DNA of 23,820 bases from a virus (taxonomy: Duplodnaviria > Heunggongvirae > Uroviricota > Caudoviricetes), in IMG/VR virus record IMGVR_UViG_2534681938_000038. One strand, 5' to 3'. How positions within the stretch are numbered: position 1 is the stretch's first letter; each line of letters begins with the position of its first letter. A program made the position numbers. Shown one piece after another: positions 14,833 to 17,800 of the stretch.

Positions 14833-17800
14833 TAAAGAGGATAGATGGAGTTTAATGGCCATGAGTATCAAGCGGTCAAAAAGAAGTTCATCTATTCATT
14901 GAAAGCATAAGGCCATCTGAGTATATCCGTAATGATCTGGATATTGTCTATAACATCAATGACCGGACGATAGATATCGGTGAGCAGCGTCCTGTATGGC
15001 AGGGTGAGGCAGGTGAAAAAACGTCCTGCCATCAACAAGAATCAAGTGCATCCGCTCTCTGGACAGATGGAAAATTTATTGGATGCAAAAAGATATGAAA
15101 TAACACCTGTATAGCACGGAGCTTTCTCTGACCGATGCACTTGAAGTTGTTAGGGCTGACCCAGCCTGCTGTTTCTTTAGGTAAGAGAAAAGAGATTTAG
15201 GAGATGAAAGGTCGCAGAGGTGCGGCCTTTTTTATTGAGAGTGGATCTTGAACGGAAATTCTCAAGACTTGAGTCTTGCATGCAAATCAATTCCTGGATA
15301 AACTCGATCTGAGTCAATAACTTAGAGAGAGAGCAAATGGCAAAGTCAAACGTTAGCGTGCAGGCATTCAAGGACTTCCTTGAAGAGCTTATGTCGCTGA
15401 ACATAATGAAGGAGGCCACCGCTCGAAATTTAAAAAACTCATCCGCTCGCCTCTTAACGGTAGTCCAAGAAGAGGAAATGGGTGATGTTACTCAGCTTGA
15501 TGTGAATGAGCTTGCCGAGCGATACATCAACGCAACTGAGCCGAAGCCTAGCGACAGCAGCATTACTGCATATAAAAGCCGCATGGAAAGTGCAATCAAA
15601 AAGTTTGTAGCTTTCCAGTCTGGTGAAGAAATCCCATACACTCCGATTGACAAAGAATCCAGTGAGGAAAAAGATTTGACTGGCGAACCAACAAAAGTCG
15701 AAGGCAAGGCTAATGCACTTCATACCTATGATCTTCCAGTAGTTCTTCGACCTGAATCAGGGGTTACAGTAACGATTAAAGGCATTCCTAACGATATCAC
15801 AAACGAAGAAGCCGAACGCATCTCTTCAATTCTGAAGGTTTACGTTCGGCCTCAATAATGCAAAAGCATTCAGCACAATGTCCAACTCCCCAGTCCGACA
15901 TTGATGCTGTTTAACCAGAGCCTCCAAAAGGAGCCCTTGTTAAGGTACACAATATTTGCGATGTAACCTTAGCGCGTCTGGTACATTTTTTCAAGCGGTT
16001 GTAGGGCTGCCGCCAATATGAGAAAACACAGATGTCTACATACAATTTGAATGACCAATTCGATCGAGAAGTTCATGTGAATGCCTATGAACGGATAAGG
16101 CATGGAAATCTTGAACATGTGTGTGAGCATTATCGCTCAAGGCCACACCGCTAATCATCAACCCGGCCTCCATGCCGGGTTTTCTTTTCCTCTCGCCCAA
16201 AAAAACACATAACCAATTGTATTTATTGGAAAATAAATAGATACAACTCACTAAACAACGCAATTCTGATCTCTCCTTACATCGCCGAGGCAATACACCC
16301 ACGCTAAAAAACAATACTATTAAATACAAAGCGTTGTAAAAAAACGCCCCGTTTTAGAACAAATTGTATTGACCAAGTGAAGTACATATCGTACTATTTA
16401 ACCATCAGCAGGACGCTGGAAGCCAAATGGAACAGACTGGCAGGCTCTTTAAACAACGTCGACTCTCGACTACGTGGCTGAAAAGCCAGATCACCCAACC
16501 ACATAAGCTGTGGGATGCAATGCCGAAGCAACCGTCTCAGGAGGAGCTTCGAGATTGCATCGCCAAAGTTTATTCGGGAGGAATCTATGTCCAGAAAAAC
16601 AGAATTTAAAGGCACCGCAGCTTCTCGCCGTAGAGCTCGTCGCGCAAACCTGCAAAGTCAGGAGGCGATTAGCTCCGACAAACTACACAGGCCAACCCCA
16701 TCACGAGTGGTCTTACAATGCAAACGCAAACCAGCAATGAGAGCAGAAGTAATAACACTGACAACGTTGACCAGAAAATATGAAGGCTCAACTTGTCTTC
16801 CAAATGTAGCTCTTTACGCGGCAGGCTACCGTAAATCCAAACAACTGACAGCAAGATGACTTGTGTTGGTCGCCAGAAAATGAAATTAGGCAGCAAACCA
16901 CTTATTTGAGGTGATATATGGAATTTCATGAAAGTGCGATTTGTGATTTTCGCGCTAACGCAAATTCAGTAAAACCACAGCCAATTGCAGTTCTTTTTAA
17001 AACAATGGGTGCGTGGGCTGTTTTATGCTTCGCCGCTGACGACACTGACGCAAGAATGGCAATAGGACAAGAGATGGAGATGGACCCGACAAACGATGAA
17101 TTCATAATTTATGGCGCTCCATCTAATTACTTACTTGATACCTGCAACATTTACAACAAGGCTGCCTGATGGTGGCCTTTATTTTTGGCATAAACAACAG
17201 AATAAACACAGCACTGTGTATTCATTCCAACGAGTGAATACACGGAGCAATGTCGCTCGTAACTAAACAGGAGCCGACTTGTTCTGATTATTGGAAATCT
17301 TCTTTGCCCTCCAATGTGAGGGCGATTTTTTATCTGTGAGGATATGAACAGATGTCAAACATCAAAAAATACATCATTGATTACGACTGGAAAGCATCAA
17401 TAGAAATTGAAATCGACCATGACGTAATGACAGAGGAAAAACTTCACCAGATTAATAATTTCTGGTCAGACTCTGAATACCGACTCAATAAACACGGCTC
17501 TTTATTAAATGCTGTATTAATCATGCTGGCGCAACATGCTCTGCTTATAGCAATTTCAAGCGACTTAAATGCATATGGTGTTGTGTGTGAGTTCGACTGG
17601 AATGATGGAAATGGTCAGGAAGGATGGCCTCCAATGGATGGTAGCGAAGGAATAAGAATTACCGATATCGATACATCAGGAATATTTGATTCAGATGATA
17701 TGACTATCAAAGCCGCCTGAGCGCGGCGTTACCGCATACCAATAACGCTTCACTCGAGGCGTTTTTCGTTATGTATAAATAAGGAGCACACCATGCAATA

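Follow-up and report, generated by a model that had tools for sequence, protein, structure and literature searches.

Does the early-control region of a lambdoid prophage of Escherichia coli O157:H7 carry a matched pair of nut sites, and what kind of N protein would read them? The question is raised by IMG/VR virus record IMGVR_UViG_2534681938_000038, analyzed here over its whole length of 23.8 kb (the window). In a preliminary description, two short hairpins of this DNA, one in each of two divergent early operons, were proposed to be the boxB elements of nutL and nutR, serving an N-like antiterminator different from that of lambda. The leftward operon, on the + strand, runs pL, N, ea10, cIII, kil, gam, bet, exo, and the rightward operon, on the - strand, runs cro, cII, O, P, ninB and onward. 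The immunity region is 99.9% identical to those of the Shiga toxin (Stx)-converting phages 1717, 2851 and Stx2a_WGPS4 and of the Stx1-converting phage AP005153, and prophage copies in E. coli O157:H7 chromosomes match it at 100% identity. We conclude that nutL and nutR are, with high probability, N-dependent processive antitermination sites of this Stx-phage-type prophage.

Both sites consist of a boxA, a spacer that contains a hairpin, the sequence UACG and a boxB hairpin (Table 1). Each lies on the transcribed strand of its own operon, in the canonical pL-nutL-N and cro-nutR-cII placement: nutL about 40 nt into the pL transcript and 98 nt 5' of the N start codon, and nutR beginning 11 nt past the cro stop codon, 5' of cII. 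A boxA (CGCUCUUUA-like) precedes boxB in nutL and in nutR. The boxA-like GCTCTTT element reported earlier 5' of each boxB was recovered by direct reading and by a pattern search, the composite GCTCTTT-N15-30-CTACGTSGCTGAAAAGCSAG occurring exactly twice, at nutL and nutR, versus 0.00 expected (100 shuffles). The 10-mer core GCTGAAAAGC alone, with one mismatch allowed, was not significant in the window (3 matches versus 1.96 expected). A covariance model built from 11 related sites found only two matches in the window, at 16443-16492 (+, 67.7 bits) and 13790-13839 (-, 59.4 bits). The spacer hairpin, present in both sites, was absent from the preliminary description. An Rfam search of the window at gathering thresholds returned no family at nutL or nutR, and ALIL (twice), Lambda_thermo, isrK and C4 elsewhere.

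The five boxB pairs are U-A, G-C or C-G, G-C, C-G and U-A. Only the second differs, G-C in nutL and C-G in nutR, and direct reading of the sequence bears out the paired swap claimed for the two stems. The proposed division of the hairpin as UGGCU-GAAAA-GCCA has to be abandoned; folding gives a 5-bp stem and a 4-nt GAAA loop, with energies of -7.1 kcal/mol for nutL and -6.5 kcal/mol for nutR (z = -3.95 and -2.28). Taken alone, a single swap between two sites is weak evidence, whereas the evidence from sequence comparison is strong.

Related sites were gathered in three ways: from scans of IMG/VR with N proteins, from a DNA pattern scan and from the reference phages H-19B, HK97, lambda and P22. 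A scan of species-representative genomes with the N alignment gave 3 loci only. In each related locus, the covariance model typically detected a pair of sites on opposite strands, 1.1-3.6 kb apart, the first of them 62-300 nt upstream of N. Homologous phages do not lack the hairpins: the boxB helix was paired in 100% of cells across 49 distinct sites, a set in which many loci are near kin, so that cell counts overstate independent events, while the number of pair types is unaffected. Pair 1 of boxB was UA in 37 sites, AU in 6, CG in 3 and GC in 3; pair 2, the one that differs within the window, was CG in 22, GC in 21 and AU in 6; the three inner pairs were invariant save for one U-G. The spacer helix showed double changes at 4 of its 5 pairs, with stems GUCGA/UCGAC, GGAC/GUCC, GGUGA/UCACC, GAAGAU/AUCUUC, GGCCG/CGGCC and GAUUC/GAAUC, and its loop varied freely while the stem was kept (CTC, ACAC, ACTC, ATC, GCAC). 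The covariation score was 0.591, compared with 0.125 for column shuffles (0 of 500 reached 0.591) and at most 0.076 with slid partners.

Symmetric DNA sites also give compensatory-looking changes, short perfect palindromes can bind proteins, and this region is dense with operators. The inverted repeats might then be DNA-level elements, such as sites for dimeric DNA-binding proteins or recombination hot spots, and not RNA hairpins, a reading that we consider extremely improbable. At every site the loop is asymmetric, always G-N-R-A on the transcribed strand (GAAA, occasionally GCAA), although the two operons run in opposite directions. A boxA stands on the same strand at every site, and a few G-U pairs are present in the helices. 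Loop orientation, same-strand boxA and wobble pairs together point to an RNA element rather than a DNA palindrome. In addition, the class of the loop follows that of the RNA-binding motif in N (see below), and the annotated cI and Cro operators lie elsewhere. Both helices, that of boxB and that of the spacer, covary at the RNA level.

The N gene is the first gene of the pL operon and begins 190 nt 3' of the -10 hexamer. Its product belongs to the N family, with an end-to-end match (residues 1-90) to PF25694 N_peptide (3.4e-32) and a match to PHROG 271, 'anti-termination protein N-like' (4.3e-25). Homologues conserve an arginine-rich motif at the N terminus, M-x-R-[RK]-T-x-F-x-G...RRR, and a C-terminal CLPxVA(L/I)(Y/F)AAG(Y/H)R; N proteins at least 80% identical to that of the window occur in 101 phage records. 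Identity to the H-19B N (127 aa) is 41%. The two proteins have in common the first ten or so residues, the RRR core and the last 21 residues, and the window protein is without the central segment and has a different arginine-rich motif. A search of PDB sequences with N gave no match even at E = 10. In GenBank the gene is annotated as encoding 114 aa from a start at 16515, 72 nt upstream of 16587. Since every N homologue has its M-[ST]-R-[RK]-T start where 16587 stands in the window, the shorter protein is likely and the annotated start is probably too far upstream by those 72 nt. This DNA has long been present in sequence databases; the GenBank record AP005153, which we inspected, annotates the N gene and no nut sites.

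The loop of boxB varies together with the class of N. Beside an N of the G[ST][AS]xxRRR[AE][RH]R[AL]xLQ type, to which the window protein belongs (45-100% identical to it, about 90 to 120 aa), the nutL loop was a tetraloop in 133 of 133 hairpins found; beside an N of the H-19B/HK97 type (GNSRSRRRERLKAKALA) it was GACAA in 81 of 81. As nutL is only about 100 nt from N, this coupling could be due to linkage alone, and nutR is therefore the better test. In all 202 loci with both sites, which fall into 28 clusters of inter-nut (immunity) sequence, the loop classes of nutL and nutR agree, and the tetraloop and H-19B/HK97 classes are never mixed. Three of the 28 immunity clusters occur with both N classes; there the nutR stem UCGCU/AGCGA and its flanks are the same, and only a one-base indel in the loop sets the sites apart. 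The concordance of nutR is as expected if the loop is the specificity determinant that N reads. That the sites serve the non-lambda N-like protein encoded at 16587-16859, as first suggested, is supported by the family of this protein, the positions of the sites, the covariation and the coupling of loop to N class.

The same results bear on the possibility that the hairpins are terminators or Rho or RNase processing signals, with nutR, for example, forming part of a tR1 rut region and N having no role. In the annotation of the lambda record, the nutR boxB lies between rutA and rutB of tR1, Rho footprints have been mapped on the H-19B nutR spacer (PMC3526286), and our terminator scan picks out the nutL spacer dyad, but on the wrong strand. 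No U tract follows either boxB (the 3' flanks are GAUCACCC at nutL and GUCCCAAG at nutR), the same module stands at nutL, where neither a rut site nor a terminator is expected, and the loop class covaries with the N class. An overlap with rut sequences is compatible with N-dependent antitermination and does not replace it, and we regard a purely terminator or processing function as improbable.

Several observations weigh against antitermination by N at these sites, in addition to the kinship among loci and the linkage of nutL to N mentioned above. In the minimum free energy (MFE) structures of the nutL segment and of the full pL leader, boxA forms a helix with the 3' half of boxB that encloses the spacer hairpin, and the 55-nt nutR segment folded alone also pairs boxA with boxB. 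Folding of both leaders, proposed earlier as a check, thus had a divided outcome: the full cro-cII leader forms both nutR hairpins, boxB included, in its MFE structure, but the nutL boxB is absent from that of the full pL leader. We consider the in silico folding of nutL ambiguous. An exception comes from IMG/VR contig 2531839234_000006 (locus L046, outside the 202-locus set), where class matching is not absolute. This contig carries an N of the window class and a tetraloop nutL near 3767 (+), together with a lambda-type nutR near 1086 (-), its opposite-strand site being the nutR of lambda (CGCTCTTACACATTCCAGCCCTGAAAAAGGGC). In that phage, either the lambda pentaloop is accepted by an N of this class or nutR does not work. 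Lastly, the prophage is decayed, with a frameshift in cI, an insertion sequence (IS) in O and a truncated right arm, and its antitermination system may lack a role in the host.

This boxA-boxB fold was considered as a conserved or selected structure and rejected. In the window it comes with an apparent three-way covariation, the base that precedes boxA (G in nutL and C in nutR) matching the swapped boxB base. Across the 49 sites, however, this informative pair is unpaired in 20 of 40 cases, and the other pairs of the fold never vary. The complementarity between boxA and boxB arises because GCU occurs both in boxA and in the 5' arm of boxB.

The decay of this prophage copy can be traced to individual lesions. 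Relative to the intact cI of AP005153, the cI gene (14135-14835, +) has a 1-nt deletion at 14439, in a T run, which splits it into one open reading frame with an HTH domain and another with a Peptidase_S24 domain; because of this split, the resident repressor is probably inactive. Two IS3-family copies of the IS1203/IS629 type, each with an ALIL frameshift pseudoknot, are present at 11315-12528 (-) and 5506-6719 (+); one interrupts O, and at the other the prophage right arm ends. After ninB, dam and an antirepressor gene, the right arm reaches this second IS copy, beyond which are genes for a TonB-dependent receptor and an IS66-family transposase.

With cI split, O interrupted and the right arm decayed, the sites could be once-functional ancestral nut sites that are now inert relics of a defective prophage. 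We think this possible but less likely than not. The module itself is intact: pL, N and the two nut sites match those of inducible Stx phages, such as 1717, 2851 and the Stx1-converting phage, at 99.9% or full identity, and a co-resident prophage of the same nut class can be served by N in trans. Moreover, the relic proposal concerns the present use of the elements and not their identity as nut sites.

Table 1. Positions of the nut elements, the N gene and neighboring control features in the window
Feature	Position	Strand	Sequence or structure	Basis or remark
nutL, whole	16443-16488	+	boxA, spacer hairpin, UACG, boxB	
nutL boxA	16443..16456	+	DNA GGCTCTTTAAACAA; RNA GGCUCUUUAAACAA	near the rrn/lambdoid boxA consensus; followed by C
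nutL spacer hairpin	16458..16470	+	GUCGA-CUC-UCGAC	position matches the H-19B spacer dyad
nutL UACG	16471-16474	+	UACG	direct sequence reading
nutL boxB	16475..16488	+	UGGCU-GAAA-AGCCA; 5-bp stem, tetraloop at 16480-16483	where the N arginine-rich motif is proposed to bind
nutR, whole	13839-13794	-	boxA, spacer hairpin, UACG, boxB	
nutR boxA	13825..13839	-	DNA CGCTCTTTGTAACAA; RNA CGCUCUUUGUAACAA	followed by C
nutR spacer hairpin	13812..13823	-	GGAC-AUUC-GUCC	identical to the H-19B and HK97 nutR spacer hairpin
nutR UACG	13811-13808	-	UACG	direct sequence reading
nutR boxB	13794..13807	-	UCGCU-GAAA-AGCGA; 5-bp stem, GAAA tetraloop	
N antiterminator gene	16587..16859	+	90 aa, MSRKTEFKGTAASRRRARRANLQSQEA...CLPNVALYAAGYRKSKQLTAR	Pfam, PHROG, homologue starts
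N Shine-Dalgarno sequence	16576-16581	+	GGGAGG	
pL promoter	16369..16397	+	TTGACC-17-TACTAT	promoter scan; operators/promoter annotated at the equivalent place in AP005153
pL transcript start (inferred)	near 16404	+	ATCAGCAGGACGC	leader start identical in lambda, HK97 and P22
cro	13850..14065	-		first pR-operon gene, followed by nutR; mapped from AP005153 annotation; HTH_3
cII	13412..13708	-		first gene 3' of nutR and of the presumed tR1 region; Phage_CII, 6.3e-32
Candidate tL terminator 1	17158..17179	+	terminator-like hairpin and T tract	downstream of N; first of three tL candidates; consensus scan
Candidate tL terminators 2 and 3	17304-17325; 17744-17763	+		consensus scan

To place the module among known antitermination systems, we compared it with the nut sites of P22, H-19B, HK97 and lambda, a comparison called for in the preliminary description. 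The nearest relative is the architecture of H-19B and HK97, whose N proteins are nearly identical to each other. H-19B nutR has two hairpins, and N and NusA footprints lie on its spacer and boxB (PMC3526286). As in the window, the H-19B/HK97 sites have a boxA, a hairpin-bearing spacer, (C)UACG and a 5-bp boxB; in nutR, the window has exactly their spacer hairpin GGACAUUCGUCC, UACG, stem UCGCU/AGCGA and downstream flank. The N proteins of H-19B and the window are alike in the N-terminal MxR[RK]TxFKG...RRR and the C-terminal CLPNVALYAAGYRKSKQLTAR. The loop differs, being GACAA (5 nt) in H-19B and HK97 and GAAA (4 nt) in the window, as does the arginine-rich motif (RSRRRERLKAKALA versus ASRRRARRANLQSQ) and the length of N (127 versus 90 aa). 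Thus the spacer dyad of the H-19B/HK97 type is present here, but we found neither its GACAA pentaloop nor its arginine-rich motif.

The boxA elements also differ. The boxA of H-19B nutR is degenerate (GCUAUUUU), and H-19B and HK97 nutL are without one, whereas both window sites have a good boxA. The H-19B spacer dyad is said to act as a structural 'reducer' (Neely and Friedman, writing in 2000), with boxA, NusB and S10 reportedly dispensable for the H-19B N. Because both window sites, unlike those of H-19B, keep a near-consensus boxA, the Nus requirement may differ between the two systems.

Likeness to lambda extends to the logic of pL-nutL-N and pR-cro-nutR-cII, to the pL leader start ATCAGCAGGACGC, to a boxA (CGCUCUUA) and to a boxB with a 5-bp stem, a closing U-A pair and a loop that begins GAA. 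In lambda, nevertheless, a GCCCU/AGGGC stem bears a pentaloop (GAAGA or GAAAA), and neither boxB of the window is of this type; the lambda spacer is 8-9 nt and without a hairpin, and the lambda N protein (MDAQTRRRERRAEKQAQW...) shows no sequence match to the window N beyond the family level. The pentaloops of lambda and P22 fold as a GNRA tetraloop with one base extruded, whereas the window loop is already a plain GNRA. P22, with its gp24 protein, resembles the window in boxA (CGCUCUUUAAC), in a 5-bp boxB with the inner pairs GCU/AGC and in the C-terminal LPGVALYAAGHRKSKQITAR, and is unlike it in its GACAA loop, its short spacer without a hairpin and its arginine-rich motif GNAKTRRHERRRKLAIER. 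The nutL boxA GCUCUUUAAACAA is also nearly the rrn boxA (GCUCUUUAACAA); rrn antitermination uses no N protein, and differs in the order of its elements and in its partners (SuhB, S4). On these comparisons, the window module represents a further putative N specificity class with H-19B-like architecture, an ordinary lambdoid control element of a common Stx-phage subclass with four boxB loop bases where five are usual. A literature search that did not extend to the key older papers yielded no account of boxB tetraloops as a class, nor of the nut sites that go with this Stx-phage N.

For the working of the module we draw on the biology of lambda, P22 and H-19B, from which N would be expected to bind boxB, Nus factors to take part and polymerase to read through terminators. 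RNA polymerase starting at pL (+) and pR (-) would transcribe boxA, the spacer hairpin and boxB. The arginine-rich N terminus of the 90-aa N would then bind boxB, whose 5-bp stem carries a true GNRA tetraloop (GAAA), and boxA would recruit NusB-NusE(S10). NusA and NusG would join, and the RNA-protein complex would stay on the elongating polymerase. Modified in this way, polymerase could pass tR1 and later terminators rightward and the tL terminators leftward, and leftward read-through would open ea10, cIII, kil, gam, bet and exo to transcription. As proposed for the H-19B dyad, the spacer hairpin would most likely do no more than shorten the effective distance between boxA and boxB.

Other RNA features accompany these sites. 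The terminator consensus scan found 9 matches in the region versus 3.9 expected. Between nutL and the ribosome-binding site of N, the leader contains a long imperfect hairpin at about 16495-16582 (+). The lambda N leader forms an RNase III-sensitive structure that controls N translation, and the hairpin of the window recalls it. Folding of the leader (-66 kcal/mol, z = -3.7) predicts that the pL transcript pairs, through its 5' end, with the Shine-Dalgarno/ATG region of N. The Rfam match to the lambda cIII thermoregulator element (Lambda_thermo) lies at 17780-17838 (+), upstream of cIII, and the matches to C4 antisense RNA and isrK, at 7452-7637 (-), adjoin an ORF6N antirepressor-type gene (6722-7399).

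The tetraloop module also occurs away from lambdoid early operons. The DNA pattern scan led to a locus (L169, 1480-1960) where a tetraloop nut module stands in tandem with other boxB hairpins. A tandem array of this kind, with five boxB-type hairpins of three N classes, lies at 6980-7500 (+) of locus L249, from enterotoxigenic E. coli (ETEC) H10407 (NC_017633). There it fills the intergenic region between integrase and alpA of an island that resembles the phage-inducible chromosomal islands (PICIs) and has a primase-helicase gene (integrase, AlpA and primase-helicase identified by Pfam). On the + strand, a promoter-like site is followed by a lambda-like GCCCU-GGAGA-AGGGC hairpin, by a boxA, spacer hairpin and CAGCU-GAAA-AGCUG, by two GACAA hairpins and by GCCCU-GAAAA-AGGGC. 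The CAGCU-GAAA-AGCUG module scores 66.4 bits with our covariance model, the GACAA hairpins are of the P22/H-19B class, one of them with a spacer of the H-19B nutL type, and GCCCU-GAAAA-AGGGC is the lambda nutR boxB. A boxA-like sequence comes after most of the hairpins. Full-length copies of the array are present in 32 complete E. coli genomes, and partial matches occur in 661 of 5426.

It has been reported that alpA of E. coli PICIs is turned on by helper phages through a factor not yet identified (PMC6092414, PMC11773190). Our literature search found no paper linking PICIs and alpA to antitermination or to boxB. Judging by the makeup of the array, the alpA-inducing factor could be helper N proteins of several classes, and PICIs may sense helper phages through N antitermination of alpA. 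Its reuse in the array independently supports the tetraloop module as a functional N-responsive unit. A broader proposal would join three propositions: that a distinct class of N reads a 4-nt GNRA tetraloop without an extruded base, that the one-base loop indel (GAAA or GACAA) by itself makes the switch between this class and that of H-19B/HK97, and that the satellite nut array senses helper N proteins as inducers of alpA. We advance the three together tentatively, with somewhat less than even confidence.

The nut sites of the window are in themselves an expected part of a well-known system. N/nut antitermination drives early expression in lambdoid phages, and in Stx phages it stands upstream of Q and hence of toxin expression. 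The N class described here is carried by many Stx1- and Stx2-converting phages of O157:H7. A tetraloop boxB that is one base away from the H-19B/HK97 class would provide a precise specificity rule, and this N-boxB pair would be another orthogonal peptide-RNA pair for tethering tools. For the phages themselves, the class of the loop would predict which co-resident prophages can trans-activate each other.

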